Shown piece after piece: positions 5,201 through 29,794 of a stretch of DNA of 64,000 nucleotides. The stretch is from Acidimicrobiia bacterium (GTDB lineage Bacteria > Actinomycetota > Acidimicrobiia > Spongiisociales > ZC4RG35): NCBI GenBank assembly GCA_015488325.1, contig WFOA01000010.1, positions 15,945 through 79,944 of the forward strand, read 5' to 3'. A program made the translations under genes and the position numbers. Numbering within the stretch: the stretch's first letter is position 1; every line of letters begins with the position of its first letter. Below the pieces are notes generated by a model. It was given only the letters and a program-made list of their open reading frames with translations, was not told where the DNA came from and did no database searches.

Positions 5201-5287
5201 CGAAACCCTCCACTCGTCCCCGTCGACACCTGTCGGACAGCGATGCACTCTAGCTTCCGCGCCTCCCCGGTCGAGGCCCAGTTCGGG

Positions 5288-10404: not shown

Positions 10405-11324
10405 AGCACCCGGTACCGCACCGAACCGACGAGACGTCCCAGGCGCAGCCCCGCCCCTTTGATCCATTCCCGTCGGCGGCGGGAGGAGACGACGAGGGGG
10501 AGACGAGCGACGAGCGACACGTAGGCCCGGAGCGTCGACAGCACCCCCGGATGGGGCATGTACTCGGCGCCGTAGACCCGGCGGGCGAGAGCCTGCTCGA
10601 CGCCCCACCGTACCCGTTGCCGCCACAGGGACCAGGCGTCGTCCCGGATCCGGTACCAGATCTCGGCGTCGGGGACCGACACGTACGCGAGGCCTCCTCG
10701 CTGCAGCCGCCACGACAGGTCGAGTTCGGAGAGGTGGGACGGATAGTCCTCTCGGAACCCTCCCAGGGCCCTCCACAGGTCGGCCCGCATGGCGAAGTTG
10801 GCGCTGGAGGCGTGGGATGCGGCCGCGGGCGACCGTCCCCAGGGCTGTGTGTCACGGTCGGGATGGTCGGAGGGATGCATGGGACCCGCGCCCGCAGGCG
10901 CCGACGCCAGGGCCTCGACGAACGCAGAGATCCACCTGGTCGACACCCGGTCGTCGGCGTCGCAGAAACAGAGGATGTCTGCGTCGGTGGACTTGGCGCC
11001 GATGTTGCGGGCAGCCGGGGATCCGACCGGTTCGGGAACGGAGATCACCTGGAGGGCGGGGAGGCGCTCTCGGAAGCCCTCGGCGACGGCGCGGGTACCG
11101 TCGGTCGACCCGTCGTCGACCACCACCACCTCCCAGGGACCTTCGTAGTCTTGGGCTTCGAGGGCTTCGAGCTGCTCGGCGAGATGACGGGCCGCGTTCC
11201 GGGCCGGGATCACGACGGCGACCCTCGGGTTGGGACCCGGCGGGCGGCTCACCTCCGAGAGATCCGGCACATCCCAGGGGGCGAGGTCGTCGAGGCCCAT
11301 ACGGTGAGGATACCGAGGGTCCAT
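10395..11324 (-). CDS. Glycosyltransferase family 2 (paralog of 12876..13739)
   Basis: VAVVIPARNAARHL...VVVVDDGSTDGT...CFCDADD (DxD). C-terminal tail LGRLVGSVRYRVLYL is shared with the paralog. Start is ATG 11324 or 11300. Confidence 0.8.
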   Translation of the reverse strand: MDPRYPHRMGLDDLAPWDVPDLSEVSRPPGPNPRVAVVIPARNAARHLAEQLEALEAQDYEGPWEVVVVDDGSTDGTRAVAEGFRERLPALQVISVPEPVGSPAARNIGAKSTDADILCFCDADDRVSTRWISAFVEALASAPAGAGPMHPSDHPDRDTQPWGRSPAAASHASSANFAMRADLWRALGGFREDYPSHLSELDLSWRLQRGGLAYVSVPDAEIWYRIRDDAWSLWRQRVRWGVEQALARRVYGAEYMPHPGVLSTLRAYVSLVARLPLVVSSRRRREWIKGAGLRLGRLVGSVRYRVLYL

Positions 11325-11433
11325 GCGGGTCCCCGACCGCGGGCTAGCCTGCCCCGCAGTCGTGACCGAGGGTGGAGTGGCGGACAGGGCGGAGATCCCC
11401 AGAGGAGACGAGGAGGGGCTGAAAGCCGGCGCG

Positions 11434-12897
11434 ATGGCGGGCGGTCGCTGGTCGGCGACCTCCAGCATCGGCCGTCAACTCGTCACCACCCTCGCCACCG
11501 TCGTCCTGGCTCGGCTCCTCGCCCCCGCCGACTACGGGATCGCGGTGGCCGTCACCGTCATCCTCGGCGTCTTCGAGCTGATGTCACAGTTCGGAATCGG
11601 CCAGTCCCTGGTCCGTCACCGTCGACTCGACCCCTCGACCACGTCGACGACGTTCTGGGCCTCGCTGATCATCGCCGGGGTGGTCTCGACCAGCGTCGTG
11701 GTGTTCGCCGACCCGCTGGGGAGCCTCATCGGCCAGGAGGCTCTGGGGCCGTTCCTCCGGCTGGCGGCGGTCGGGTTGGCGGTCTCGATGGCGGCTTCGG
11801 TGCCTGCAGGTCTGCTCACCCGGCAGATGGAATGGTCGAAGCTGACGATGATCCAGCTCGCCGGGTCGATCGTCCAGTTCTCGGTGGCGGTGGGGTTGGC
11901 GGCGACGACGGCGCTCGGGGCGTGGGTCCTCATCATCGGACGGGTGGCCGGGTCGGCCTTCCAGTTCGTCGGCCTCTTCTGGGCGGCACGGTGGACCCCG
12001 ACCTGGGAGTTCTCCCCGGCGGTGCTCCGCCGGGACCTCTCCTTCAACCTGGGGTTCTGGAGCACCTACGTCACCTCGTATGTGGCGAAGAACCTGGACT
12101 ACTGGGTGGTGGGCCGGCTGTTGGGGGCTGCCGTGCTGGGCGTCTATTACATCGCCTACGTGCTGCCGGTGCTCGTCCGCCAGCGCATCACCCGGGTCCT
12201 GGAGGGTGTCTTGTATCCGGTCATGGCACGGGTCGCCGACGACCGCCGCCGTCTCGAAGCCGTGTACGTCGAAGCCCTCGGGTTCTCCACCTTCGTCACC
12301 CTCCCGGCGGTGCTGGGCCTGGTCGCCGTCGCCGACCTCGTCGTCCCCCTGTTCTTCGGTACCCAATGGTCCGGGGCGGTGGCACCGATGCGGATCCTGG
12401 CGCTGGCGACCGCCTTCGACGCCCTCCTCCCCGTCGGCACCGCCCTGTTCCTGGCCCTCGGCCTCCCCGGCCGCAACGCCGTCATCACCACCTCCCGGGT
12501 GGTGACGATGGTCGTCGTCTTGGCCGTGGTGGCCGGGTCCCGGGACCTCACCTCGATCGCGTGGGCGGTCGCCGCCGGGTCGGTGACGGCCGTCGTCGTG
12601 GCGTTCCGCCTCGTCGTCCGCCGGGCCGGCGTGTCGCCCCGCTCCTTCGCATCCGCGGTGCTCGCCCCGAGCGTCACCTCGGCGGCGATGCTCGGTGTCG
12701 TCGTCGCGACCCGCCAGTTCACCTTCGTCGGCGGCCTGGGCGACCTCCCCCAACTCGTCGTCGCCGTCGTCGTAGGGATCGTCGCCTACACGGTGCTCGG
12801 GATGGGACTGTTCCGCCGCCGATACCGGAAGTATTTCGCCGACCTCGCAACCCTGGTCGGCTTCGACCGGATCCGTCAGAGGACCAGCACCCGATAG
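11434..12897 (+). CDS. Wzx-type polysaccharide/oligosaccharide flippase (MOP superfamily)
   Basis: About 12 hydrophobic segments. The N-terminus SSIGRQLVTTLATVVLARLLAPADYGIAVAV...QSLV is typical of polysaccharide biosynthesis (Wzx) proteins. The start is uncertain (ATG 11434; track start 11323). Confidence 0.8.
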   Translation: MAGGRWSATSSIGRQLVTTLATVVLARLLAPADYGIAVAVTVILGVFELMSQFGIGQSLVRHRRLDPSTTSTTFWASLIIAGVVSTSVVVFADPLGSLIGQEALGPFLRLAAVGLAVSMAASVPAGLLTRQMEWSKLTMIQLAGSIVQFSVAVGLAATTALGAWVLIIGRVAGSAFQFVGLFWAARWTPTWEFSPAVLRRDLSFNLGFWSTYVTSYVAKNLDYWVVGRLLGAAVLGVYYIAYVLPVLVRQRITRVLEGVLYPVMARVADDRRRLEAVYVEALGFSTFVTLPAVLGLVAVADLVVPLFFGTQWSGAVAPMRILALATAFDALLPVGTALFLALGLPGRNAVITTSRVVTMVVVLAVVAGSRDLTSIAWAVAAGSVTAVVVAFRLVVRRAGVSPRSFASAVLAPSVTSAAMLGVVVATRQFTFVGGLGDLPQLVVAVVVGIVAYTVLGMGLFRRRYRKYFADLATLVGFDRIRQRTSTR

Positions 12898-13754: not shown

Positions 13755-14906
13755 TCAGCCGCCCCTCGGGTCGGGGCCGGCAGAGACGACCCTTCGGGCG
13801 ATGTCTCGCCACAGGTCCACGGCGAGGCTCTCGGGAAGGGAGACGTCGGCGGTCTGGAGGACGGCTCCGCGGGGCACCGGCCGTTCGACGACGGCGTCGC
13901 GAATCAGCCCGATGGGGACGTGCTCGGGATGGTCGACGATGCGGACCGCCCGGCCCCGGAGATCGAAGGATCCGATCCCCCGGTCGAGACGGTCGCCGGG
14001 ATGCAGGTCCCGTTTCGCCACGGCCGCCAGGGACAGCTCGGGGCGAGCCGAGTTGTCGAGGAGCACCCCGCCCCCTTCCGTCACCCGTCGGATCGTCTTG
14101 AGGATCTCCAGATGCACGAAGATGTTGGGTCGGACGAGGGTGTAGTAGGGCCCGTCGCCCATCTTGTAGTACCGCAGGGCCGGGGCCTGGTCGGGGTCGT
14201 GGGTGGCGACGATGAACACGCCGTGGCTGAGATGGGGTGAGACGACGAAGTCGGTCACCGGCCGCCCCACCTTCTCCGCCAGCGACGCCAGGCGGGCGGC
14301 GCCGTCGGACAGGTCGTCGACCGCCGCCCCTTCCATGCCGTCGGGCCCGATGGTGGCACCGAAACGGTTCCCGACGAGGACCTGTTCGGCTTCGACCTTG
14401 GTGCCGTCGGTGAAGGCGGTCACCATCGGGAGGCTGATGCCCTGACGCTCGGCCCAATACTCCATCTCGTCGGGGGTGGGATCCCGGTTGAGGAACCCTT
14501 TCATGTTCCCGTAGGCGACGGGCCGAAAGCCCATCGCCACTGCCTCTTCGTGCAGCTCGGCGAGACAGCCCGGCTGGTCGCCGGCGGCTTCGGTCACGAC
14601 CCCTCGGCCGACGAAAGCCGAGCCGGTGGTGATGTGGAACTCGGTGTTCATGGTGACGACCGGGACGCCGCGGTCGACGGCCGCGGCCACCACGTCGGTC
14701 GCCCAGATGGGATCACCCGAGCATTCGACGACGACGTCGGCGTGGTCGACGAGCTCGTCGATCGAACGGGTGACCAGGTCGTCGTCGAAGACGTCCACCG
14801 TCCGACGTCGGGTGAGCACCTTGACGATACGGGCCGTGTCCCTCCGCCGGACTTCGGTGGCGAAGTTCCGGGCGATGAAGCCGGTTCCGACCAGACCCAG
14901 GTTCAT
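13755..14906 (-). CDS. NAD(P)-binding, homoserine-dehydrogenase-like oxidoreductase with C-terminal SAF domain (COG4091-like)
   Basis: Internal ATG at 14906 (ATGA overlap with the rmlA stop) gives [15 protein letters not shown] (Rossmann GxGxxA) ...VVECSG... The C-terminal region (DLHPGDRLD...[18 protein letters not shown]) is SAF-like. Family assignment is from memory. Confidence 0.65.
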
Positions 14907-15808
14907 CGGATCGGCCTCGACCGGGGTGCCCAGCCGCTGAAGGGCTGGTCCAACAGCTCGAGCAGGTACTGGCCGTACTGGGAGGAACGCATGGCACCGG
15001 CGAGCCGGCGGACCTGTTCGGCGTCGATGTAGCCCATCCGCCAGGCGATCTCCTCGGGGGCTGCGATCTGCAGACCCTGGCGGCGTTGGATCGTGGCGAT
15101 GAAGTTGGAGGCTTCGAGCAGGGCGTCGTGGGTTCCCGTGTCCATCCAGGTGGTTCCCCGGCCCAAGAGCTGCACCGACAGTCGGCCCTGTTCCAGATAC
15201 ACCCTGTTGAGGTCGGTGATCTCGAGTTCGCCCCGGGCCGACGGTTTCAGGCCTTTGGCGATGGAGGAGACGTCGCCGTCGTAGAAGTAGAGCCCGGTGA
15301 CGGCGAAGTTCGAACGGGGCCGTTCCGGTTTCTCCTCGATGGACAGCACCGTGCCCTTCTCGTCGAACTCGATCACCCCGTACCGCCGGGGGTCTCGCAC
15401 GTAGTAGGCGAACACGAGGGCCCCTTCGGTGAGGGCGGCGGCCTCCTGCACCCGGTCGGTGATGCCGTAGCCGAAGAAGATGTTGTCGCCGAGGATCAAA
15501 GCGACGGGGTCGCCGTCGACGAACCGTTCCCCGACGATGAAGGCGTCCGCCAGGCCCCGCGGTTCGGGCTGAAAGGCGTACGAGAAGCTGAGTCCCCACT
15601 GACTGCCGTCTCCGAGGACGTTGTGGAAGCTGGGGGCGTCGCCGGGGTTGGTGATGACGAGGATGTCGCGGATCCCGGCCAGCATCAGCACCGAGAGCGG
15701 GTAGTAGATCATCGGCTTGTCGAACACCGGTAGGAGCTGTTTGGAGACCCCCCGGGTGACGGGGGCCAGCCGGGTCCCCGAGCCGGCAGCGAGGATGATC
15801 CCTTTCAT
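14903..15808 (-). CDS. rmlA: Glucose-1-phosphate thymidylyltransferase
   Basis: [52 protein letters not shown]... is canonical RmlA. GGAGGG lies directly upstream of ATG 15808. Confidence 0.95.
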
Positions 15809-16842
15809 CCCTCCGGCTCCAGGTCGATGAGAGCTCCGTCGAGCTCCACTTCGGCGAGACGGCGGCGCCATTCGGTGAGCAGCCGGTACCACTCGAGGGT
15901 GATGGTGTCGGGGGTCCGGTCGGTGAGACCCGCCGAGAGGGCCTCCACCACCTCCTGGACCCCGTCGATGGCGGTGAGTTCCGCCTTGTACCCCCGGGAT
16001 TCGATCTTGTCGAAGCACACCCGGTAGGACCGGTGGTCGGGGTCTCCGTACCATTCGATCTCGACGTCGTCGCCCACCGTTTCGGCGACGAGCCGGCCGA
16101 GGGGCCCGATCTGGTACACGTTCGCCTCCGAGCCCACGTTGAAGATCTCCCCGCTCACGTCCGAATGGGGAGCTTCGATGGCCCAGATGAGGGCGCGGCT
16201 GGTGTCGGCGACGTGGACCATCGGGCGCCACTGGCTTCCGTCCCGCATCAGCGGGAGACGACGATGTTTCCACGCCCCGTACGTCATCCCGTTGATGGCC
16301 AGGTCGAAACGCATCCGCGGGGAGTAGCCGTACACCGTCGCCTGGCGGAGCACCACCACACCGAAGGTGTCGCAGGCCAGGGGCAGCACCCCCGCCTCGG
16401 CCCGCTCGTTGGCCTGGGCGTAGATGGTGAGGGGGTTGGTGGGATGGGTCTCGTCGGCCACCACGTCGGGGTCTTGGAACCCGTACACCGAACAGGAGCT
16501 CGGCAGCACGTATCGTTCCACCCCGGCTTCACGGGCCAGACGGGCGCATCGCACCCTCGCCTCGTAGTTGATCTGCCAGGTGGCTTCGGGGAAGAGGGCG
16601 CCGCTGGGGTCGTTGGAGATGGCGGCCAGGTCGATCACGTACCGGACCCCGGAGAAATGGTCGGGACGCAGGCGTCGGGTGTCTTCGGTGATCTTCTCCA
16701 CCCGGTCGTCGTCGGCGAGGCGGTCCCGCCCGAAGAAGAACCGGTCGATGACCCGTACCCGGTATCCCCGTTCGACCAGCATCGGGACCAGGGTGGTGCC
16801 GATGTATCCGCCGCCGCCGGTCACCATCACCAGATCACTCAT
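15805..16842 (-). CDS. NAD-dependent epimerase/dehydratase family (extended SDR) protein with atypical YxxxN in place of YxxxK
   Basis: [15 protein letters not shown] (GxxGxxG) and SSCSVYG. At the position of the catalytic YxxxK the sequence reads [13 protein letters not shown] overlaps at both ends, with rmlC and rmlA. Confidence 0.8.
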
Positions 16843-18846: not shown

Positions 18847-19629
18847 TCACGGGCCCCGGTACCCCGACACCAATGACCGCACCCGATCTTCCAGGCTGAG
18901 GCCGCCACGCACCCGGGGCCCGAAGAACACCCGGCCGTCGGCCGCCTGCACGGGGATGCGGGGGATGCGGTGGCGGTCGGTTCCGGGCCCGACCGGGCCG
19001 GGACGTCCCAGCACGGCCGTCTCGTATCGCCGCCGGACCACCCCGTCGGCCCCCTCCGACCAGTAGCCCCACGGGTAGGCGAAATGGCGGGGCCGGATCC
19101 CCAGGCGCCGCTCGATGAGCTCGTCGGAGGCGGCGAGCTCGGATTCGACCTGGTCGGGCGCCAAGGAGCGTAGGTCGACGTGTCGATGGGTGTGAGCGCC
19201 GATCGTGACGAGGCCCGACGCCACCATCTCCTCCACCTGTTCCCAGCGCAACGGGCGGCCGTCGGGGTAGAGGGGCGTTCCCGTCTCGACGGGTTCGGTG
19301 GTGAGGAACAGGGTGAAGGGCATCTGCAAGTCGCGCAGCAGCGGGAACGCGTGCTCGTAGACATCGACGTAGCCGTCGTCGAAGGTGATCGCGACCTCCA
19401 GGGTCTCGCCATGACCGCCATCGACGGCCTGTTCGAAGGGGAGCACCCGGGCGTGCTCCGCCAACCAGGCGACATGGGCGCGAAACACCTCGGGGGTGAC
19501 GTCCATCTGGCGGGCGGATCCGCCCCCCACCTGGTGGTAGATGAGGATGCGGGGCCCGGCGACAGGCGAGAGGAGTGGGTCGGCCACGACCGCGGCCATC
19601 TTGAGGAGTCGCCGGATGAGGTGCGCCAT
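18847..19629 (-). CDS. Polysaccharide deacetylase (CE4/NodB-like)
   Basis: ILIYHQV...ITFDDGYVDVYEHAFPLL...FTLFLTT...IGAHTHRHVDL is consistent with CE4 metal- and catalytic-site motifs. Confidence 0.85.
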   Translation of the reverse strand: MAHLIRRLLKMAAVVADPLLSPVAGPRILIYHQVGGGSARQMDVTPEVFRAHVAWLAEHARVLPFEQAVDGGHGETLEVAITFDDGYVDVYEHAFPLLRDLQMPFTLFLTTEPVETGTPLYPDGRPLRWEQVEEMVASGLVTIGAHTHRHVDLRSLAPDQVESELAASDELIERRLGIRPRHFAYPWGYWSEGADGVVRRRYETAVLGRPGPVGPGTDRHRIPRIPVQAADGRVFFGPRVRGGLSLEDRVRSLVSGYRGP

Positions 19630-19633
19630 GGCC

Positions 19634-22429
19634 TCAGCGATGGGACATCGGGGGGCCGAGGGCGAGGAGCTCCTCGTCGGTGAGGACCGGCTGCGCCAGG
19701 AGCCCGAGACGCTGGACCGGCGCCAGGTTGGGGCGGATCCCCTCGGACCAGTCGGGGTCCCAGCCGAGGGGCTGCTCGTTGGCGGACCGCCACGGGTAGT
19801 AGATGCGGGCTCCGTCGATCGTCCCCTCGTAGAGCCAGCCGAGACTGATCTCGAAGTACCGGACCTCTTCGATCTGCTCTTGGAGGGCGGCGGCCGTCTC
19901 GGCCTGGTTCCGTTTCGCCGCCGCCCGTTGCTTGCGGTCCAGACGCTCGATCACGGCCTTCACGTAGTCGCCCGCCAGGTGGTCGAGGGCGTCACGGTCG
20001 AACCGGGGGGCGTAGACGAACACGTTGACGGCGCCCCGCTGGCTGGCCAGATGCCAGATCACCGGCGCCCGTTCGGTCGTGGCCACGTGGATCCGGAAGA
20101 AGTTGGCGACGAGCCACTCGTCGATGGTGGGGGCCTGCCCCCCTCCGACGGCCCCGATGATCCGGGTGATGTGACGTTCCAACTCGGCGGCGGCTTTGGT
20201 GCCGAGCTCGGCCCGCAACCCGGCGAGCAGGTAGGACCCCACCGTCCGGTATCCCCGAGCCTCGTCGAGGGGAAGGAAGTCCGGGATCTGGGAGAAACCG
20301 TGTTCGGTGGCGGCGACCGGCGAGGACATGAGGAGGTTCTCGACCCGGGAGACGAGGAAGTTGGCGACGGCCGGGTAGGCACGCTCCGGCTCGGCCTCCG
20401 CCAGACGCTCGACCAGCTCCAAGGCGACGGATTCGTCGACCGCGGCCGTTCCCGTCGGCGGCGGGATCGGCCCCCCGGCCGGAGGCTCGACGGTCGGTTC
20501 GACGACCTGGCCGTCACCGGTCTCGGCGTCGGCGTCCGCCGGGACCGCCGTGGCCTCCACGGTGGGCTCCGGCTCGGGTGTCGGCTCCGCCACCTCCCCT
20601 GGCGGGGCCTCGGTGTCGGTCACCGCTTCGACCAGGGTCCCCAGGTCGGCCTGGGCGGGCTCGAACGTGGAGATCCGGCGGGGACGGGGCGCCGGTGCAC
20701 GGGCGGGTTCGGCGGCCGGTTCCCGGGGGGCGACCGCCGGAGCGACCGGCCGACCCCGTCCGAGACCGGCCGCGGGCATGACGCCCCGCCGGTCCACGAA
20801 CACCGCTCCGAGGAACTTGGCTCCCCGATCTTCGAGATCCGCCACCCGGTCGGCGAGCTCGGTGCGAGAGACCCGACCCGGGACGAGGGTGACGACGGCG
20901 TAGTCGACCCGTTGCACCAGCTCCTGAGCGGTCGCCACGGTGAGGTCGTTGGCGGCGAACAGCACCAGGTCGAACCGGGCCGAAGCCACCCGGATGAGGT
21001 CGGCGAGGAGGGGGCGGGCCAGCAGCTCGGAGGGGTCTTCGGTGGGTGAGCCGGCCTGCACGGAGATGAGGTTGGGTCGGACCGGCCGGGCCTGCGCCAG
21101 TATCCGGGCGAGGGCGGCGTCGTCGCCTTCGGGGATCTCGAGCAGCGTGGCGAAGTCGACGTCGCCCCGGTACTCCACCATGTTGGTGTCGTGGGTGAAG
21201 TCGGCGTCCACCAACAGGACCGAACGCCCTGCCCGGGCGAACGCCACCGCCAGGTCGGCGGCGAGGGCGTGGACGTCCTCGGGTTGCGTGCCGAGGCCCG
21301 TGACCGCCACCGCCGCCCCCAAGCCTCCGATCCGACCCTGCAGCCCGGCACGGAGCCCCTGGACGGCACGTTTTCTCCGCCCCCCTTCTTCCGCGTCGTA
21401 CCAGATGCTCCGCCGTGACGGTTTGCGGATCGGTACGGCCGCGAGGAGGGGAAGCGGAGCCAGGTCGGCCCCGGTCCAGACCGGCTTGAACAGGCGGTCG
21501 ACGACCAGCAAGCCCGCCACAGCGAGGACGAGGCCGACCAGCAGGCCGATGGCTCCGGCCGCTCCCCGTGAGACGGGGTCCGGTGTCTGGTCCACGACGT
21601 CGATGACCTCGGACACGACCGGGCCCGACAGCGCCGCCTGACGGAGGAACAGCTCCTGGAACGAAGCCTCCAACTCTTCGTATTCCCGTTCGAGGGCCCG
21701 GCGCAGGGTCTGCTCCGCGCTGAACTCGGAGACCGTCGGCGGCGGGCCGAGCCGGTCGAGCTGGGCGTTGACGGTGGCGATCGCCAGGGTCGTACGGTCG
21801 AGATCCGCCTGAACTTCGTCTTCGGCTCGGTCGCTGCCGACCAGCAGCTCCTTTTGGTATTCGAGGGCGTCGGCCCGCAGCGACTCGAGGAGCGCCTGCA
21901 GTTCGGCCCGCTCCTCCTCGTCGGGGTCGACGGCGACAGGCGAGCCGATGGCCTCGATCCGGGCCCGCACGTCCGCCATCCGGGCGGAGATCTGTTCGAG
22001 TTGGGTCTGGATCTGCTCCAGGACGTTGGGGGGCTGGCCTTCGAGATACCGGGACCGCAGCTCGCCGGCCCGGGCCTGCGCCTCCTCGGTGCTCGACCCT
22101 TCGGCGACGAAGACGAGGGCGCCTCGATCGACGTCGCTGAAGATCTCCCAGGAGGGGTTGGCCTCGAGCAGGTCGGCGTTCACTTCGAGGGCGAAGGCGA
22201 GGGCCTCTTCGAGACGGGCCTGGGCGAAGTCTCGGGACACACCCGACGGGTTGTCTTCGCTCTCGACGCTGGCGACGACGGTGACCGGGGCCTCCGCCCG
22301 GATCACCGGGGTCAGGGAGGCGTTCCTCCAGGCGGCGCCGAACACGCCGGCGGCGAAGCCGAGCACGGCGAACACCACCACCCAGGGCCAGCGGGCCCGG
22401 AGGACACGAAGGGTGCGGGTCAGGTCCAA
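19634..22429 (-). CDS. Atypical polysaccharide co-polymerase: Wzz-like two-TM ectodomain, P-loop-degenerate BY-kinase-like domain, Pro/Ala/Glu linker, and an unassigned ~265-aa C-terminal domain
   Basis: 931 aa. TM segments at residues 14-33 and 291-311 flank a coiled-coil-rich segment. AVAVTGLGTQPEDVHALAADLAVAFARAGRSVLLVDADF aligns to the BY-kinase Walker A/A' region but lacks GK[ST]. The C-terminal domain is described in findings. Confidence 0.75.
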   Translation of the reverse strand: MDLTRTLRVLRARWPWVVVFAVLGFAAGVFGAAWRNASLTPVIRAEAPVTVVASVESEDNPSGVSRDFAQARLEEALAFALEVNADLLEANPSWEIFSDVDRGALVFVAEGSSTEEAQARAGELRSRYLEGQPPNVLEQIQTQLEQISARMADVRARIEAIGSPVAVDPDEEERAELQALLESLRADALEYQKELLVGSDRAEDEVQADLDRTTLAIATVNAQLDRLGPPPTVSEFSAEQTLRRALEREYEELEASFQELFLRQAALSGPVVSEVIDVVDQTPDPVSRGAAGAIGLLVGLVLAVAGLLVVDRLFKPVWTGADLAPLPLLAAVPIRKPSRRSIWYDAEEGGRRKRAVQGLRAGLQGRIGGLGAAVAVTGLGTQPEDVHALAADLAVAFARAGRSVLLVDADFTHDTNMVEYRGDVDFATLLEIPEGDDAALARILAQARPVRPNLISVQAGSPTEDPSELLARPLLADLIRVASARFDLVLFAANDLTVATAQELVQRVDYAVVTLVPGRVSRTELADRVADLEDRGAKFLGAVFVDRRGVMPAAGLGRGRPVAPAVAPREPAAEPARAPAPRPRRISTFEPAQADLGTLVEAVTDTEAPPGEVAEPTPEPEPTVEATAVPADADAETGDGQVVEPTVEPPAGGPIPPPTGTAAVDESVALELVERLAEAEPERAYPAVANFLVSRVENLLMSSPVAATEHGFSQIPDFLPLDEARGYRTVGSYLLAGLRAELGTKAAAELERHITRIIGAVGGGQAPTIDEWLVANFFRIHVATTERAPVIWHLASQRGAVNVFVYAPRFDRDALDHLAGDYVKAVIERLDRKQRAAAKRNQAETAAALQEQIEEVRYFEISLGWLYEGTIDGARIYYPWRSANEQPLGWDPDWSEGIRPNLAPVQRLGLLAQPVLTDEELLALGPPMSHR

Positions 22430-24360
22430 ACCGTCGAAACCTCGGGTTCTGGGGTGAGGACGATCGTCTCGTCGCCGCCCCCAGTATGCCGCGCCAGCGC
22501 CCGCAACATGTCGACGACGTCCTCCAACGCCCCTTTGCGGGCGGCCCGCTCCAGCATCTCGACCCCGTCGGAGAGGGTGGTGACCCCCGGCCGAGGCGGA
22601 TGGGCGATCGAGATCTTCGGGTGCTCCGACGGCTCGAGGGCACCTTCGGCGAGGACCTCCACCATCTTCTCGCCCGGCCGGACCCCGCTGACGACGACTT
22701 CGATGTCGCGGCCGGGGACGAGTCCGGCGAGGCGGATCAGACGCCGAGCCAGGTCGGCGATCCGGATCGGCTCGCCCATGTCCAGCACGAACACCTCGCC
22801 GCCTTCGGCGAGGGCGGCGGCCTGGAGGACGAGCTGGACCGCCTCGTCGACCGTCATGAAGTACCGGGTCATGCTGGGGTCGGTGAGCGTGACCGGCCCG
22901 CCCTTCTTGATCTGCTCGACGAAGGTGGGCACGACACTGCCGCGGCTGCCGAGGACGTTCCCGAACCGCACGGCGGTGTAGGTGCAGCCGTCGGCACGCA
23001 GGTCGGCGGCCTGGACGAGCATCTCGGCGACCCGCTTGGTGGCGCCCATCACCGAGACGGGATCCACCGCCTTGTCGGTGGAGATCAACACGAACCGCTC
23101 CGCCCCGACCTGGGTGGCGATGTCGATCATGTTCCGGGTGCCGATCACGTTGGTCAGCACCGCCTCGTCCGGGAACCCTTCGAGGATCGGTACGTGTTTC
23201 AGCGCCGCCGCATGAAAGATGACCTGAGGCCGGTACGGGGTGACACGTCGCGCCAACATGTCGGCGTCCCGCACGTCGGCGAGGATCGGCGTGATCTCGG
23301 CGTCGGGTCCGCAGCCCAGCACCGTCTCGTGGAGGTGGGTCTCGTCGTTGTCGAGCGCCAGCACCGTCTCCGGACCGAACCGGAGGACCTGACGGACGAT
23401 CTCGGAACCGATCGAGCCTCCGGCCCCGGTGACGAGGACCCTTCTGCCCCGCAAGAGGCCCGCCACCGCGGCCAGGTCCGTCGAGACGGTGGCTCGAGGC
23501 AGCAGGTCGGTGAGTTCGATGTCTCGGACATCGACCGCGCCGGCGGAACCTTCCATCACCCGATGGGCGACGGGGAGGATCCGCAGCCGCACGTCGACGT
23601 CGGTGCAGAGGTCGACGACCCTCCTGCTGAGGTAGTCGTCGTCGGCCACGACGATCACCTGCTCGGCTCCGTACCGCTCGATCACGTCGTGCAGTTCGTC
23701 GAGGTCCCCCAAGATGGGCAGTCCGGCCAGACGGCGGACACTGTCGGCGCCTCCGGTCGAGACGAACCCGATGATGTCGATCTCACCGCCGTTGCTCGTC
23801 ACCTCACGGACGAAATCCGCCGCCGCCCGGCAGGTGCCGACGACGAGGGTGGGGAGCGGCCGCCCACCGGTGATGGTCCGTTTGAACGAGAACAGCCGCG
23901 ACCGGAACCGCACCAGGCCCATCCCGGCGAGGGCGAGCAGCGGGCCCATGATCGCCACCGACAGCGGGATCGGCACCAGGCCGTCGGAGGTGACGTCCAC
24001 CCAGAGCACCCAGCCGGTGACGGCCATGCCGACGACGACGTTGGAGGCGATCACCTGTTTCGCCTCGGAGATCGAGGCGAACTCCCAGACGTGCCCGTAG
24101 GCGCCGAAGACGACGTTGGCCGCGAGGTGCAGCAACAACAGCAGGGGCATCGTCCGGGTGAGGCCCGTCCACCAGGTGAGGGGGTCGGTGATCCCGGTGT
24201 CGAGCATCCGCAGCCCCAGGGCGATCGTATAGGCGCCGACGACGATGGCCAGGTCGACCACGGCGAAGGCGATGTCCGCCCGCACCCTGGAAGCGGCCGC
24301 GGCCAGCGGCCTCCACCATCGTCCAGCCCTTGTCCCCAAAACAGATCCGGTGTCTGCCAC
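22420..24360 (-). CDS. Membrane-anchored nucleotide-sugar 4,6-dehydratase/epimerase (CapD/WbpM/PglF-like polysaccharide biosynthesis protein)
   Basis: N-terminal TM helices, then VLVTGAGGSIGSEI...ISTDKAV.P.SVMGATKR.AE...RFGNVLGSRGSV, a CapD family signature. GTG 24360 is preferred (GGGAGG 5 nt upstream, and low GC3 upstream of it); the track start is 24417. Confidence 0.85.
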   Translation of the reverse strand: MADTGSVLGTRAGRWWRPLAAAASRVRADIAFAVVDLAIVVGAYTIALGLRMLDTGITDPLTWWTGLTRTMPLLLLLHLAANVVFGAYGHVWEFASISEAKQVIASNVVVGMAVTGWVLWVDVTSDGLVPIPLSVAIMGPLLALAGMGLVRFRSRLFSFKRTITGGRPLPTLVVGTCRAAADFVREVTSNGGEIDIIGFVSTGGADSVRRLAGLPILGDLDELHDVIERYGAEQVIVVADDDYLSRRVVDLCTDVDVRLRILPVAHRVMEGSAGAVDVRDIELTDLLPRATVSTDLAAVAGLLRGRRVLVTGAGGSIGSEIVRQVLRFGPETVLALDNDETHLHETVLGCGPDAEITPILADVRDADMLARRVTPYRPQVIFHAAALKHVPILEGFPDEAVLTNVIGTRNMIDIATQVGAERFVLISTDKAVDPVSVMGATKRVAEMLVQAADLRADGCTYTAVRFGNVLGSRGSVVPTFVEQIKKGGPVTLTDPSMTRYFMTVDEAVQLVLQAAALAEGGEVFVLDMGEPIRIADLARRLIRLAGLVPGRDIEVVVSGVRPGEKMVEVLAEGALEPSEHPKISIAHPPRPGVTTLSDGVEMLERAARKGALEDVVDMLRALARHTGGGDETIVLTPEPEVSTVWT

Positions 24361-24613
24361 CAGAACCTCCCAGCTCTCGCATCCCCACTTGACCCCGTCG
24401 GGGTCAGTCGGATACATCCTACCCGCGGACCGACATCATCAAATGGGCCGTCCGGCCCATTCCTGGGTCCCGGGACTCATTGTCGACCGCGACCGGAAAG
24501 TCCCACTTCCCGCCGCCCGATGCACCGTCTAGCCTGGCCCGGGGCGGCGCCGCATCGGCGCCAGTTCGCCACCACATCACGACTCGGTGCGAGCCAGGGA
24601 GGTTCGAAGAGCT

Positions 24614-26585: not shown

Positions 26586-27526
26586 CCGGCCCGAGCATCC
26601 GCCTCGCCCGACCCGACGATCTCCCCCAGATCCTCGACGTCCTGCGGGCCGCCCTGGGCGAGACGCCCCTGTTGCGACGCACCCCGGAGCTGTGGCGTTG
26701 GAAACACGTCGAGAACCCCTTCGGGCCGTCTCTGGTCCTCGTCGCCGAAGCCGACGGCCGGGTCGTCGGGGTACGGGCCTTCATGCGTTGGGAGTTGGAG
26801 ACGCCCGACGGTGACACCCTCCGGTGCGTCAGGGCGGTCGACACCGCCACCCATCCCGACTATCTGCGACGGGGGATCTTCCGGCGTCTGACCGAGTCGG
26901 CGATCGAATACGCCCGGGACGAAGGGGTGGATCTGGTCTTCAACACCCCCAACGCCAAGTCGGGGGCGGGATACCTGAAGATGGGGTGGCGGACCGTCGC
27001 CCGACTCGGGGTGATCGTCCGATGGCGGACGGGTCGGGTCGCACCCCTCGATTCCGATACCGTGCCCCGCCTCGACGACCATGTGGCGGCGGTCGACCCG
27101 CTGGATCCGCTGCCCCCGGCCAGACGGGGACACGGTCTCAGGACTCCCCGCCGCGACGCCTACCTCCACTGGAGGTTCTCACAGCATCCGACGGCACGCT
27201 ACGGAGCCGTCCGGTTCGGATCCGGGACCGCCGTGGTGCGACCCAACGTCCGTGCAGGACGCCGGGAGCTGGTGGTGTCGGACGTCCTCGGTGACGCCAC
27301 CGCGGGGCTGTTCCGGGAGGTGGCGAAGAGGAACCGCTCCCGCTACGTGGCCACCTGGTTCTCCCCGGCGGCACCGGAACGGCGCATAGCCCGACGTGCC
27401 CTGTACGCTCCGGTTCCGGGACTGCGGACCCTCACCCTCGTGGCCCGACCGCTACGGTCCCTCCCCGTGGACGTCTTCGATCTGGGGAACTGGGATCTGG
27501 CGGTGAGCGACCTGGAGTTGCTGTGA
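26582..27526 (+). CDS. GNAT family N-acetyltransferase
   Basis: ATG 26582 (ATGA overlap with the GT4 stop). IRLARPDDLPQILDVL...VRAVDTATHPDYLRRGIFRRLTESAIEYA is GNAT motif A-like. Confidence 0.75.
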   Translation: MTGPSIRLARPDDLPQILDVLRAALGETPLLRRTPELWRWKHVENPFGPSLVLVAEADGRVVGVRAFMRWELETPDGDTLRCVRAVDTATHPDYLRRGIFRRLTESAIEYARDEGVDLVFNTPNAKSGAGYLKMGWRTVARLGVIVRWRTGRVAPLDSDTVPRLDDHVAAVDPLDPLPPARRGHGLRTPRRDAYLHWRFSQHPTARYGAVRFGSGTAVVRPNVRAGRRELVVSDVLGDATAGLFREVAKRNRSRYVATWFSPAAPERRIARRALYAPVPGLRTLTLVARPLRSLPVDVFDLGNWDLAVSDLELL

Positions 27527-28869
27527 GACAGCAGATCGTCCTCGGGATCGGCGCCGGGTTGACGGCACTGGTCGCGTTCGTCCTCGCCGCCGGCGCCGTC
27601 CCCCTCCACCTCGTGGTGCTGGCGGTGGCCGGCCTCTCCGTCACCTACCTGGTGGGTCGGGCGATGGCGACGGACTTCGACCGGTCCTGGCTCCCCGGTC
27701 TCCTGGTGGCCGGACTGGCCGCGAAGCTGGTCGGGGCCTGGGTCCGGTACTTCGTCCTCATCGAGGTGTACGGCGGTGTGGGTGACGCCCTCGGATACCA
27801 CAGCCGAGGCCTCCGCCTCGCCGAGATGTTCCGGGCGTTCACGGTCCCCACCTTCGAGGACGCCGGTTTCGGGTCGACCGGCACCCGGTTCGTCTCCTGG
27901 TTCACGGGTCTCGTCTACACGCCGTACCAGCCCGAGCCCCTCGGCGGTTTCTGGCTGTTCTCGCTGATCGCGTTCGCCGGCACGGTTCTCTTCTACGCGG
28001 CGGTGCGACGCAGCCTGCCACCGTCGACGTGGCGGCGGTTCCTCATCATGCTGATGTTCTGGCCGACGCTGCTGTACTGGCCGTCGTCGGTGGGCAAGGA
28101 AGCCCTGATCCTGGGCTTCGGAGGGGTGGTGACCTACGGGGCGGCGCGGCTGTTCGAGCGGTACCGCCTGAGCTGGCTGCTCGTCATCGGCGCGGCGATG
28201 GCCGTCATAGGCATCATCCGGGTCCACGTCGCCGGCCTGTTCGCCGGAGCGATCGTCGTCGGCATGCTCGTCTCCGCCGCACCTCGCGGTGCAGGCCCGA
28301 AGAGTCGCCGCCTCCTCCTCATGGCGGCCGGGTTCGCGGCGCTCATCCCCCTGGCCGCCCTGGTCTCGAGGGAGTTCGGCATCGACCCCAGCGGCCCCCT
28401 CGACCCCTCCGCCCTCGAGCCGGTCCTGTCCGAGGTGGCCCGCACCACCGGCCAGGGAGGCTCGGCGGTGCAGGGCGGGGTGATCCGCTCCATCGCCGAC
28501 GTCCCGGCCGGTGTCCTCAAGGTGTTGTTCCGTCCCCTCCCCTACGAGGCGTCCAACATCCAGATGCTGGCGGCCAGCGTCGAGGGCGTGGCGTTGCTCC
28601 TGTTGATCCTCTCCCGCACCCCGTGGATGATCGGGAACCTGCGTCGGCTGCGCCGCTTCCCGTATCTGATCTTCGCCGCCACGTTCTCGGCCGGTTTCGT
28701 GGTGGCCTGGAGCGCGATCCTCAACCTGGGGATCATCGCCCGCCAGCGGGCCCTCGTCATCCCCTTCGTCCTGACCCTCGTCGCCGGCCTCGGCTGGCCC
28801 CTGGCCGCCGGCGAGGAGCCGGCTTCCGCTGCCGAACCCGACCGGGACGCCGCCCTCAACCCCACTTGA
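27523..28869 (+). CDS. Polytopic membrane protein, candidate Wzy-type polymerase / O-antigen-ligase-like
   Basis: 448 aa with about 10-12 hydrophobic segments and no soluble domain. GTGA overlap with the GNAT stop. The functional call is by context only. Confidence 0.55.
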   Translation: MRQQIVLGIGAGLTALVAFVLAAGAVPLHLVVLAVAGLSVTYLVGRAMATDFDRSWLPGLLVAGLAAKLVGAWVRYFVLIEVYGGVGDALGYHSRGLRLAEMFRAFTVPTFEDAGFGSTGTRFVSWFTGLVYTPYQPEPLGGFWLFSLIAFAGTVLFYAAVRRSLPPSTWRRFLIMLMFWPTLLYWPSSVGKEALILGFGGVVTYGAARLFERYRLSWLLVIGAAMAVIGIIRVHVAGLFAGAIVVGMLVSAAPRGAGPKSRRLLLMAAGFAALIPLAALVSREFGIDPSGPLDPSALEPVLSEVARTTGQGGSAVQGGVIRSIADVPAGVLKVLFRPLPYEASNIQMLAASVEGVALLLLILSRTPWMIGNLRRLRRFPYLIFAATFSAGFVVAWSAILNLGIIARQRALVIPFVLTLVAGLGWPLAAGEEPASAAEPDRDAALNPT

Positions 28870-29794
28870 GCGCGGCCCCCACGGCGCCGACCACCGCCAG
28901 CACCCCGGTGACCGCCGCCGCGCCCACCCCGGCCCACCACCAGGCGGCGACGACCGCGCCACATAGGAGCGCCTGCGCCCCGGCGGCCACGAACACGACC
29001 GTCGGCACGCTCCACCCCCGGTCGGCCAGCCGGTCGTAGAGATGGGACCGGTCCCCTTGGAACAGGGGCATCCCCGCCCTCCGCCGTCGCAGCACCGTCG
29101 AGACGAGGTCGACGAGGAACACGCCGAGCAACGAGCCGCCGGCGACCATCCCGACCACGTCTTCGCCTCCCAGCCGGACACCGGAGGCCACGAGCATCAG
29201 GCCGACCAGGTAGCTGCCGTTGTCCCCGAGGAACACCCGCGCCGGATGCCAGTTGAAGACACCGAACCCGACCAAGGCGGCACCGAGGGCGACTTCGGCA
29301 CCGAGATCCGCTCCCGACGTCGACCCGACCAGCCCCATCGCCACCAGCGTCACCAGGGCCACCGACGCGACCAACCCGTCGAGGCCGTCGAAGAGGTTCA
29401 CGGCGTTGATCCCCACCACCACGCCGGCGGCGACGAGGGCACCGCCGACGGGTCCGACCCCGAGAGCCCAGGCCACGAGCACCCCGGCGACGGCTTCGAC
29501 GGCGAGCCTGAGCACCGGGGGCAGGCCTCTGCGGTCGTCGACCAGCCCCAACGCGACCACCAGCCCTGCCGCGACCATCAGCCTCGGGGAGGGACGTCCG
29601 GTGAGTATCGACGAGACGACGAGGGCGCCGTACAGCCCCACCCCTCCGAGGGGCACCGCCGGGACCGTGTGGACTTTCAGGGCCTCCCCGGGTCGGTCGA
29701 CGATCCCCAGTCGGGGGCCGAGCGCCGGTGCGATCGCCGACCACCCGGCGGAGACGACTGCGGCGGCGAGCCCTCCGGCGATCAGGCCGACCAC
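28856..29794 (-). CDS. Polyprenyl-phosphate N-acetylhexosamine-1-phosphate transferase (WecA/MraY family)
   Basis: GLVDDRRGL, INAVNLFDGLDGL and VFLGDNGSYL are hallmark MraY/WecA motifs. The start is set at in-frame GTG 29794; upstream track-ORF residues are R/G/P-rich junk. Confidence 0.85.
   Translation of the reverse strand: MVGLIAGGLAAAVVSAGWSAIAPALGPRLGIVDRPGEALKVHTVPAVPLGGVGLYGALVVSSILTGRPSPRLMVAAGLVVALGLVDDRRGLPPVLRLAVEAVAGVLVAWALGVGPVGGALVAAGVVVGINAVNLFDGLDGLVASVALVTLVAMGLVGSTSGADLGAEVALGAALVGFGVFNWHPARVFLGDNGSYLVGLMLVASGVRLGGEDVVGMVAGGSLLGVFLVDLVSTVLRRRRAGMPLFQGDRSHLYDRLADRGWSVPTVVFVAAGAQALLCGAVVAAWWWAGVGAAAVTGVLAVVGAVGAALKWG

Follow-up and report, generated by a model that had tools for sequence, protein, structure and literature searches.

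A Wzc-type PCP-2 pseudokinase carrying a PglX/BrxX-type C-terminal domain in a glycan cluster of an Acidimicrobiia-like bacterium

Described systems and the architecture of the locus

Wzc, a PCP-2a tyrosine autokinase (7nhr, 9r62 and others), has a TM-ectodomain-TM unit and, after it, a P-loop-type kinase fold in the cytoplasm. In the CapA/CapB system of Staphylococcus aureus (3bfv, 4jmp), the kinase is CapB, a catalytically active separate polypeptide with a Tyr cluster and without an extra C-terminal domain; in these respects it is unlike the protein described here. CapAB is a Gram-positive-type system whose kinase complex coordinates cytoplasmic capsule enzymes (PMC6441080). In Myxococcus xanthus, the BY pseudokinase EcpK acts as a scaffold in association with the PCP-2 EpsV (PMC12004946). 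For the C-terminal domain (CTD) of BrxX, the BREX anti-phage methyltransferase, of Escherichia coli, the structure paper reported that no structural homolog was found beyond type I BREX, to which its authors considered the domain unique (PMC11842806).

The window analyzed in this study, a 64,000-nt stretch of contig WFOA01000010.1, encoded a Wzc-type PCP-2 within a probable Wzx/Wzy-type glycan cluster of an Acidimicrobiia-like bacterium (Table 1). The gene started with a TTG at 22429, preceded by a GAGG 9 nt upstream, and ended with a TGA at 19634-19636. A preliminary description of this DNA had divided the 931-aa product into four parts, and every part was verified. The TM helices that it placed at residues 14-33 and 291-311 coincided with hydrophobic segments and modelled helices; the ectodomain of ~255 aa between them was present and mainly helical in the model (net charge -29 for residues 34-290); the BY-kinase/MinD-like domain matched NCBIfam eps_fam over residues 388-544 (6.8e-15); and the ~115-aa Pro/Ala/Glu linker had a fitting composition (20% Pro, 19% Ala, 12% Glu; net charge -13) and low modelling confidence throughout. 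The fourth part, the C-terminal domain, is treated below.

Table 1. Positions of the fusion gene, its parts and its neighbors in the window
Feature	Position	Strand	Basis or description
MOP-family (Wzx-type) flippase	11323..12897	+	Pfam Polysacc_synt_3 1.5e-66; NCBIfam MOP flippase 1e-57
NodB-type polysaccharide deacetylase	18847..19629	-	Pfam Polysacc_deac_1 1.6e-26
Fusion gene, whole	19634..22429	-	931-aa PCP-2 (Wzc-like) pseudokinase with PglX/BrxX-CTD-like C-terminal domain
C-terminal domain, residues ~665-931 (~265 aa)	19637..20437	-	homolog of BREX-1 PglX/BrxX C-terminal region
Disordered linker, residues ~550-664	20438..20782	-	pLDDT <50 for 550-664; composition
Cytoplasmic juxtamembrane segment and BY-kinase-fold pseudokinase, residues ~315-549	20783..21487	-	profiles, Foldseek, motif alignments
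TM helix 2, residues ~288-314	21488..21568	-	hydrophobic 292-310, Kyte-Doolittle 2.74; modelled helix 288-314
Extracytoplasmic PCP ectodomain, residues ~38-287	21569..22318	-	alpha/beta base and long helices (model)
TM helix 1, residues ~12-37	22319..22396	-	hydrophobic 12-30; modelled helix 14-37
Membrane-anchored UDP-GlcNAc 4,6-dehydratase, CapD/PglF type	22420..24417	-	Pfam Polysacc_synt_2 1.5e-105; NCBIfam PseB/FnlA-like
448-aa polytopic membrane protein, Wzy-polymerase candidate	27523..28869	+	~9 hydrophobic segments
WecA/MraY-family initiating phosphoglycosyl transferase	28856..29794	-	NCBIfam ECA_wecA 2.3e-20

Residues 1-550 were modelled like full-length Wzc (Foldseek of the full-length model against 7nhr, E 3.5e-19 over ~680 columns), and the kinase-like domain matched the kinase domains of Wzc, CapAB, Etk and BceF at ~1e-8, superposing on the CapAB chimeras with target-normalised TM-scores of 0.7-0.78. 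The matches to eps_fam and to EpsG (2.2e-11) were under their curated cut-offs, and that of the Pfam Wzz N-terminal model at TM helix 1 was weak and sub-threshold (E 0.19; 12.5 bits vs a cut-off of 25.5). Neither Pfam Wzz PF02706 nor NCBIfam Wzc or eps_transp_fam was reached at its curated cut-off, and the NCBIfam kinase and PCP models fell far under their cut-offs; judged by these missed thresholds, the window PCP is a divergent subfamily. It shared with Wzc the order of its membrane and kinase-like parts and the context of a cluster with a Wzx flippase and a WecA-type transferase. In contrast to Wzc, it had a shorter ectodomain, no Walker A, Walker B or Tyr-rich tail, an altered ExxRxxR, and an extra linker and PglX-type domain. 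A Wza partner would not be expected, as the lineage is presumed to be monoderm.

The fusion gene was always found in the same CapD-PCP-deacetylase polysaccharide locus. The CapD/PglF-type gene was translationally coupled to it, the fusion-gene start overlapping the upstream gene's stop by 10 nt, and was located directly upstream in every locus with enough flank. The deacetylase gene began 4 nt past the fusion-gene stop, and its place directly downstream was conserved (synteny across L001-L010). The divergent arm had the order epimerase-GT4-GNAT-Wzy candidate, the last without a Pfam or NCBIfam match and present at 32-82% identity in the related loci L001, L003, L005, L006, L008, L009 and L010; the L001 ortholog of the WecA/MraY-family transferase carried PF00953. 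The glycan cluster comprised a MOP flippase, a WecA-type transferase, the candidate Wzy, many glycosyltransferases and sugar-nucleotide enzymes. It was housekeeping-like and adjoined core metabolism genes.

Homology and surface of the C-terminal domain

In both sequence and structure, the C-terminal domain is truly homologous to the BREX-1 PglX/BrxX C-terminal region. The preliminary description had likened it to the C-termini of PglX and of type IIG methyltransferases, and the likeness to PglX was far beyond chance. The domain matched NCBIfam BREX-1 PglX at 3.1e-10 (38.6 bits, a local match to profile positions 1049-1169 that falls short of the curated BREX_1_MTaseX cut-off of 500 bits) and PADLOC PglX at 1.5e-14, and its profile matched the solved PglX/BrxX sequences at 6e-17 and 5.7e-16. 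By phmmer, E-values went down to ~1e-40 against some BREX-1 PglX proteins, and in Foldseek searches of the PDB, PglX/BrxX structures (8c45, 8q56, 9ewz, 9ex7, 8zek) were the only significant matches. The motifs R-x-P-I-x-W-H-L-x-S and D-G-V-x-x-N-I-x-P-x-Q-x-x-G-L-L were common to both, and the fold of the PglX CTD (helical part, three-stranded sheet, two-helix bundle and conserved tail) was present. The likeness to type IIG enzymes was weaker, appearing in one PADLOC model, REase_MTase_IIG, as a match limited to residues 765-854 of the protein and the C-terminal end of the model (3.8e-7); the fused nuclease, methyltransferase and TRD of the type IIG/IIL (MmeI-like) architecture were all missing from the 931-aa protein by Pfam.

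From its N-terminal helices, the domain continued through a wHTH-like core and a two-helix hairpin (residues 812-868) to a conserved tail, W-D-P-D-W-S-E-G-I-R-P-N-L-A-P-V-Q-R-L-G-L-L. The core consisted of three helices and a small beta-sheet and carried R-x-P-x-x-W-H-L-x-S, and the first hairpin helix terminated in RLDRKQRAAAKR. The N-terminal helical bundle, the N6-adenine methyltransferase domain and the TRD of PglX/BrxX were all absent from the window protein, whose C-terminal domain hung on a membrane protein via the disordered linker; neither the methyltransferase domain (Eco57I/MmeI_Mtase, GxG, NPPY) nor a TRD gave a Pfam or NCBIfam match in the 931 aa. True PglX relatives showed Eco57I and MmeI_Mtase, and the closest non-PCP relatives exceeded the NCBIfam BREX-1 PglX cut-off, with P0049 and other long relatives scoring 520-677 bits and P0049 lying within a brxA-brxB-brxC-pglX-pglZ-brxL operon (locus L011). 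None of the BREX genes brxA, brxB, brxC, pglZ and brxL was found in the 64-kb window or, in the related loci, within 8 kb of the fusion gene.

In BrxX, D997 and D999 are metal ligands and K1048, R1145 and K1152 contact DNA or Ocr (PMC11842806). By sequence alignment, as opposed to structural superposition, their equivalents in the window protein were Q, P, G/Q, E and E, respectively. The metal site of the E. coli BrxX CTD also includes D1012 and Y1113; D1012 had no confident equivalent in the alignment, and Y1113 corresponded to Y822, which was kept in the window clade and replaced by V, L or I in the majority of PCP members. The mean net charge was -7.4 for PCP C-domains vs +1.6 for PglX C-domains, and three positions conserved as basic in PglX were acidic in PCP C-domains. 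As the metal ligands and the DNA/Ocr-contacting basic residues of BrxX were lost and the domain was acidic, the PglX-type module probably does not work on DNA here. Thus, where the preliminary description envisaged a DNA-modification-associated domain on the cytoplasmic side of a PCP, the PglX homology stood, while a role on DNA is probably to be given up. Basic residues were still conserved in the PCP C-domain at positions 809, 832, 835, 857, 881, 899 and 907. Because of these and of RLDRKQRAAAKR at the end of the first hairpin helix, the domain may bind some polyanion, such as DNA, lipid head groups or a sugar-phosphate polymer.

Replacement of the named contacts and ligands, family-wide negative charge and the basic-to-acidic changes also argue against a domain that retains the non-specific DNA-backbone binding of BrxX and tethers or senses DNA at the membrane, thereby linking polysaccharide assembly with the nucleoid or with incoming DNA. 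The homologous BrxX CTD does line a positively charged groove holding the 3' DNA tail (PMC11842806), its core has been classed as wHTH (PMC12839542), and some basic residues persist in the window domain, for example in the RLDRKQRAAAKR stretch and at positions 809, 832 and 899. In BrxX, however, DNA binding by the CTD requires the TRD and MTase domains as well, both missing here, and the loci contained no conserved DNA-related genes; we consider DNA binding of this kind unlikely.

Less probable still would be a phage-defence-linked sensor or decoy, binding a phage protein (such as a DNA mimic of the Ocr kind) or a BREX component that is encoded elsewhere, and switching surface-polysaccharide synthesis upon infection. 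Phages commonly use surface glycans as receptors or meet them as barriers. The homologous PglX/BrxX surface docks the phage DNA mimic Ocr (PMC11341690, PMC11842806), but the Ocr-contact residues were lost in the window domain, whose acidity would repel a DNA mimic that is itself acidic. In PglX, mutations at the C-terminus separate restriction from methylation (cited in PMC13326643). Against the phage-defence reading, the surroundings of the fusion gene, over the distances given above, were free of BREX genes and consisted of a housekeeping-like cluster beside core metabolism.

The kinase-like domain

The degenerate Walker A and the retained Walker A' of the preliminary description were both seen, and Walker B was lost besides. 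In the alignment with the canonical kinases P0005 and P0006, whose Walker A motifs are EGKAT and EGKTAT, the window protein read TGLGTQPEDV, with GK[ST] gone. This P-loop segment was hypervariable in ~45 family members, whereas canonical relatives kept EGK[AT]T. Walker A' was kept as VLLVDADF, with D408 near-invariant across the family. The Walker B pattern hhhhDxxP was replaced in the family by LFAAND or VVxGD, the window protein having FDLVLFAAND vs YDHILIDSPP and FDYVVIDTPP in canonical relatives. No Tyr was counted within residues 549-667, consistent with the absence of a C-terminal Tyr cluster noted earlier. ExxRxxR supports ring contacts in true BY-kinases. In the window protein, this site read R-K-x-A-V-Q-x-L-R behind an invariant W-Y (family consensus R/K-K-x-[AS]-[IV]-Q-x-[LF]-R), and only the last Arg (R360) was retained; as the motif was only partly kept, an octameric ring is an assumption.

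The pocket residues G401, D408, D487 and R507 were near-invariant in the family, and because the Walker A' Asp and these other pocket residues are conserved, the kinase-like domain may bind some ligand. The same residues, VLLVDAD and the 9 Tyr inside the C-terminal domain could be read as signs of a domain that is still active or nucleotide-binding via a non-canonical P-loop and has the C-terminal domain as its substrate or regulator. We regard this as highly improbable, since the P-loop lacks GK[ST] and its hypervariability across the family indicates no constraint on it, the Walker B Asp is absent, the Tyr cluster is missing, and no phosphatase was found among the annotated cluster genes by Pfam or NCBIfam.

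As in EcpK with EpsV, a BY-kinase fold that has neither catalytic motifs nor a phosphorylatable Tyr tail was associated with a PCP-2, the association being covalent in the window protein. By analogy, the pseudokinase could act as a scaffold for a PCP-2 of a Wzx/Wzy pathway, independently of phosphorylation. The likeness is one of features, and there are differences: EcpK is a small stand-alone protein that ends in a basic helix and lacks all three motifs, whereas the window pseudokinase keeps Walker A', is fused to the PCP and is extended by a folded domain of 265 aa that originates from BREX.

Conservation of the fusion and its proposed role

The fusion is genuine and ancient, and it is strongly conserved. 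Whether orthologs keep it had been left as a question by the preliminary description; the whole architecture was common to ~50 clusters (50% identity) that aligned with the window protein over the full length, in Acidimicrobiia and in MAGs labelled Acidobacteriota. A frameshift or a separate C-terminal gene, which would have spoken against the fusion, was not seen, as 11 cluster members from separate assemblies were all 931 aa. Orthologs at 78%, 72% and 34% identity kept a single ORF, while the linker differed in length and sequence among orthologs and was shorter in P0004 and most family members. In distant orthologs, the C-terminal domain was the most conserved part (36-42% identity vs 28-34% for the N-terminal part). 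Its dN/dS (0.076 and 0.096) was also the lowest of the protein, compared with 0.12-0.25 for the kinase-like domain, 0.27-0.48 for the ectodomain and 0.35-0.55, the highest, for the linker. GC3 was 0.82-0.93 in the fusion-gene frame from end to end, including the linker. Although a GC-rich, low-complexity and poorly conserved linker is prone to assembly and sequencing indels, an artefactual origin, by frameshift, by chimeric assembly or by the joining of two genes across the linker, can be dismissed for practical purposes, because the separate sources agree on 931 aa, single ORFs run the full length through linkers of varied length, coding-type GC3 is unbroken and purifying selection is strongest in the C-terminal domain. 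The preliminary description knew of no PCP with such a module, and no description of a PCP-PglX-domain fusion was found in the literature searched.

On balance, we favor a phosphorylation-independent PCP scaffold, like the BY-pseudokinase scaffolds EcpK/EpsV, whose tethered PglX-type domain would dock proteins rather than DNA. The role of the ectodomain and TM cage would be to control Wzy-dependent polymerisation, and that of the dead kinase domain to form an assembly platform beneath the membrane. Protein-protein contacts of the tethered domain would set the oligomeric or activity state, replacing the Tyr phosphorylation cycle; candidate contacts are adjacent protomers and cytoplasmic enzymes of the cluster (the co-conserved CapD-type dehydratase, the deacetylase and glycosyltransferases). 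The domain was probably repurposed, from a surface for the DNA backbone and BREX partners to a pure docking module.

As DNA-contact and metal residues were lost, yet the C-terminal domain was the most constrained part, its conserved core function would not be DNA binding as such. The PglX CTD is a self-contained domain able to exist outside a methyltransferase, and the PCP family offers a second, simpler system for finding PglX-CTD partners. A bolder idea, to which we give a small chance, is that the PglX/BrxX CTD is an autonomous, portable interaction module that serves in the PCP family as a switch replacing Tyr phosphorylation, perhaps responsive to a polyanion or a phage ligand. If true, envelope polysaccharide assembly would be wired to the kind of recognition surface through which BREX licenses restriction, and the simpler PCP version would reveal the binding target of the BREX CTD.

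In Acidimicrobiia and related MAGs, the proteins define a PCP-2 subfamily that is deep and uncharacterised. In the proposed view, a folded domain replaces the phosphorylation switch in this subfamily, which would extend the newly recognised phosphorylation-independent PCP-2 class (EcpK/EpsV). Neither Pfam nor NCBIfam held a stand-alone model for the PglX-type C-terminal domain. Of source names for family members, only 'Mrp family chromosome partitioning ATPase' was found.

Protein architecture and the C-terminal domain

The full-length AlphaFold2 model of the window protein, computed from a 40-sequence family alignment (mean pLDDT 82), placed helices 14-37 and 288-314 on either side of the ectodomain. 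Its best PDB match in Foldseek was full-length Wzc (7nhr_A, E 3.5e-19, ~680 aligned columns), followed at ~1e-8 by Wzc, Etk, CapAB and BceF kinase domains in isolation. Curated profiles agreed weakly with the structure: NCBIfam eps_fam (6.8e-15) and EpsG (2.2e-11) were both well below their cut-offs, and Pfam Wzz reached an E value of 0.19 only. The two transmembrane segments around an ectodomain, together with the Wzc match, bore out the Wzz/PCP topology proposed in the preliminary description. By topology, fold and context, the window protein is a Wzc-type polysaccharide co-polymerase (PCP-2) that does not reach curated sequence thresholds.

Features of the fusion gene, its protein and related loci (nucleotide positions refer to the window unless stated)
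Feature	Location	Strand	Remark
Fusion gene	19634-22429	-	931 aa
Transmembrane segments	residues 12-30 and 292-310		segment analysis
Ectodomain	between the two transmembrane segments		acidic, mainly helical; composition and AlphaFold2 model
Alpha/beta domain	residues 328-550		AlphaFold2 model
W-Y signature	residues ~343-360; 21350-21410	-	
Linker	residues 550-664		pLDDT <50
Linker, with DLGTLVEAV at the motif place	20438-20782	-	window clade
C-terminal domain, folded	residues 665-928		AlphaFold2 model
448-aa polytopic protein	27523-28869	+	Wzy candidate; ~9 hydrophobic segments
GT4 with C-terminal GNAT acetyltransferase	29782-31554	-	fused enzyme
NTP_transf_5 nucleotidyltransferase with GT4	31547-33658	-	fused enzyme
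Overlapping mechanical ORFs	13755-15599 and 14903-16273	-	
DRL-type oxidoreductase	~13755-14909		by comparison with L001
RmlA	~14903-15808		by comparison with L001
766-aa protein	2987-5287	-	three CWB2 repeats, PD40/Kelch beta-propeller repeats
GmrSD_N (type IV restriction)	L011, 13041-14822	+	between pglX and pglZ

The C-terminal domain is the C-terminal region of PglX/BrxX, the BREX-1 methyltransferase. NCBIfam BREX-1 PglX matched at 3.1e-10 (residues 742-855 onto profile positions 1049-1169 of 1210) and PADLOC PglX at 1.5e-14 (residues 755-905), and a profile of the domain recovered Salmonella PglX (8c45, 6e-17, residues 1016-1187) and E. coli BrxX (9ewz, 5.7e-16, residues 996-1165) among PDB sequences. 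A profile was required, as single-sequence phmmer against PDB sequences gave no match; Pfam, which lacks a model for the domain, gave none either, whether the full protein or residues 594-931 were scanned. A word-indexed homolog search with the domain alone returned one fragment, P0007, owing to a limitation of the index. The exhaustive profile search of 1.84 billion representatives returned 659 proteins at E ≤ 1e-3, 69 of them at E ≤ 1e-30. Scanned relatives of 1200-1730 aa were Eco57I/MmeI-type N6-adenine methyltransferases carrying the domain at the extreme C-terminus, and all seven long relatives scanned passed the NCBIfam BREX-1 PglX cut-off (520-677 bits). The closest PglX relative, P0049, is encoded in a brxA-brxB-brxC-pglX-(gmrSD)-pglZ-brxL operon and aligned to the window protein by plain phmmer at 1.4e-40 over residues 715-927; motifs in common were visible by eye (RPIAWHLTSPKGAFQAIVYYHKFD versus APVIWHLASQRGAVNVFVYAPRFD, and QPVGWDPDINDGVRVNIAPVQRLGLLA versus QPLGWDPDWSEGIRPNLAPVQRLGLLA). 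The domain model (pLDDT 92.8, pTM 0.89) matched six BrxX/PglX chains, and only these, at E ≤ 0.001 in Foldseek against the PDB (E 5e-7 to 1e-5, probability 1.0), and the next match had an E value >1. Profile and structure agreed on the resemblance to a PglX C-terminus proposed in the preliminary description. The likeness stops at this module: with nothing else in common, the window protein itself belongs neither to PglX nor to the BREX components or type IIG enzymes. Two side features were seen among the PglX relatives, the GmrSD_N gene of the P0049 operon (locus L011) and, in P0061 (1728 aa), ~380 extra N-terminal residues that match AAA_16 weakly.

The region of homology lies inside the CTD as named by Drobiazko et al., who found no structural homolog of it and regarded it as confined to type I BREX (PMC11842806). 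The fusion contradicts that published view, and its family opens the BrxX CTD to study in a second system. Full-text literature searches yielded nothing joining "BREX" with "chain length determinant", and the matches listed for PglX/BrxX with Wzc/PCP made no mention of PglX or BrxX, in keeping with the earlier statement that no described PCP was known to carry such a module. Source annotations were blank, apart from one instance of "Mrp family chromosome partitioning ATPase".

Residues were mapped by sequence, without superposition, from the alignment with E. coli BrxX and the family alignment. The window protein has Q and P in place of the BrxX metal ligands D997 and D999 of the motif D-x-D-G-I-x-P-L, where the PCP family consensus is x-x-G-F-x-P-L. 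At the position of ligand Y1113, nine of nine sampled PglX proteins carry Tyr, whereas most PCP members carry Val, Leu or Ile; the window clade retains Tyr. K1048, R1145 and K1152 of E. coli BrxX contact DNA/Ocr (PMC11842806), and their counterparts are G/Q, E and E. The mean net charge of the common core is -7.4 in 49 PCP members versus +1.6 in PglX, and window positions 788, 831 and 844, conserved as basic residues in PglX, are conserved as acidic ones in the PCP family. Basic residues persist in the PCP domain at 809, 832, 835, 857, 881, 899 and 907. Given these exchanges, it is unlikely that the domain has retained binding to DNA or another polyanion.

The glycan cluster

By Pfam and NCBIfam annotation, the fusion gene lies inside a large glycan cluster that includes a MOP/Wzx flippase, a WecA-type initiating transferase, several GT2 and GT4 glycosyltransferases, GNATs, RmlA, RmlC, epimerases, a membrane-anchored UDP-GlcNAc 4,6-dehydratase and a NodB-type deacetylase. 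The 448-aa polytopic protein had no Pfam or NCBIfam match and was found, 32-82% identical, in those related loci that reach far enough on that side; it is likely a Wzy-type polymerase candidate of an undescribed family. As for the Wzx/Wzy context raised in the preliminary description, the window cluster has a flippase and an initiating transferase, and a Wzy only as this candidate.

Related loci were located with a PCP-only alignment and came from Acidimicrobiia metagenome-assembled genomes (MAGs) and two MAGs labelled Acidobacteriota; the organism itself is represented by MAGs only. The core locus has one arm running from the dehydratase through the fusion gene to the deacetylase, and a divergent arm of epimerase, GT4, GNAT and the 448-aa protein. 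Both arms were present in L001, L003, L005, L008, L009 and L010, and in L006 bar a detectable GNAT. BREX genes were found neither within the 64-kb window nor in the related fusion-gene loci, and a BREX or defence-island context was ruled out, as the cluster sits between housekeeping genes (glutamate synthase, SufBD, fumarase). A phage- or BREX-linked sensor role for the C-terminal domain is improbable in this setting.

Several neighbouring genes deserve record. The GT4-GNAT and NTP_transf_5-GT4 fused enzymes are both kept in L001 and L003. The two mechanical ORFs overlap because of long upstream extensions, and the actual genes encode the oxidoreductase and RmlA. The 766-aa CWB2 protein lies just beyond the cluster. 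CWB2 domains serve in Clostridioides to attach proteins to secondary cell-wall polysaccharides and, by analogy, the cluster product may be such a polymer.

The kinase-like domain and a proposed scaffold

About 45 family members were aligned with two canonical BY-kinase relatives. Across the family, the Walker A loop was hypervariable and lacked GK[ST], versus EGKAT or EGKTAT in the canonical proteins, and the Walker B position read LFAAND or VVxGD versus IDSPP or IDTPP. The ExxRxxR position held a family-specific R/K-K-x-[AS]-[IV]-Q-x-[LF]-R, downstream of an invariant W-Y, and Walker A' (VLLVDAD) was retained. Linker residues 549-667 were 20% Pro, 19% Ala and 12% Glu, with no Tyr, and no phosphatase was found among the annotated cluster genes. 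The degenerate Walker A, retained Walker A' and missing Tyr cluster noted at first reading were all seen again. These losses show a kinase domain that is, as judged from its motifs, catalytically dead family-wide, and by definition the protein is a BY pseudokinase, for which EcpK is a recently established case (PMC12004946). That the domain is instead a non-canonical active kinase, as its intact Walker A' might allow, is very improbable.

Two further motifs were noted. The W-Y-(D) ... R/K-K signature could serve as a diagnostic for the subfamily. Many family members have [PS]-[IVL]-[ST]-R-L-x-x-Y-P between pseudokinase and C-terminal domain (alignment A4), replaced in the window clade by DLGTLVEAV, and this motif might act as a docking peptide or be a remnant of the Tyr tail.

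Our analysis shows a strongly constrained domain of PglX-CTD type, flexibly tethered on the cytoplasmic side of a PCP. We lean, with modest confidence, towards a PCP-2 scaffold of the EcpK/EpsV kind that would act independently of phosphorylation, in which the C-terminal domain would make a regulatory or recruiting protein contact in place of the Wzc Tyr tail. Its partners would be neighbouring protomers or cytoplasmic cluster enzymes rather than DNA. In the BREX literature, other BREX proteins are suspected to dock on the PglX C-terminal region (PMC11341690, PMC13326643), in line with protein binding as the core function of the domain; as cited in PMC13326643, Wozniak et al. 2023 found that C-terminal mutations of PglX uncouple restriction from methylation.

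Integrity, age and constraint of the fusion

The gene begins at a TTG, the first start available past the upstream in-frame stop, with GAGG 9 nt before it. Its start overlaps the upstream gene's stop codon by 10 nt, its TGA lies 4 nt from the next gene start, and GC3 is 0.82-0.93 in each 100-codon window, low-complexity linker included. The coordinates and single-gene reading given originally are therefore correct. The 90% cluster held 11 members from different sources, all of 931 aa, and one ORF was retained in orthologs at 78%, 72% and 34% identity, the last without most of the linker. Among the best 150 of the 659 representatives, ~50 clusters (814-975 aa) matched the window protein across the PCP/pseudokinase part as well as the C-terminal domain, so the fusion is kept in orthologs, as the survey suggested at the outset was meant to establish. 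The others were PglX, PglX C-terminal halves or fragments, leaving two host architectures only among these 150.

By the Nei-Gojobori method, dN/dS between the window gene and each of two orthologs was 0.076 and 0.096 in the C-terminal domain, 0.12 and 0.25 in the kinase-like domain, 0.27 and 0.48 in the ectodomain, and 0.55 and 0.35 in the linker. In distant loci the C-terminal domain was also the best conserved, at 36-42% identity versus 28-34% for the N-terminal part. Continuous GC3, single-ORF orthologs, the ~50 clusters, the uniform 931 aa and the low dN/dS of the C-terminal domain ruled out a frameshift or chimera, and an artefactual fusion is hardly credible.

A midpoint-rooted NJ tree built on the core domain placed the PCP proteins in a monophyletic clade apart from PglX, and their C-terminal domains had a mean pairwise identity of 37%; together these indicated a fusion that arose once and long ago. 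A third architecture had been suspected for matches of 520-750 aa, which proved to be PglX C-terminal halves (TRD + CTD) or fragments. P0051, P0074, P0110 and others (597-666 aa), which aligned end to end with the BREX-1 PglX C-terminal half, come from pglX genes that are split or truncated; in the P0074 cluster, three of four members share a length of 658 aa.
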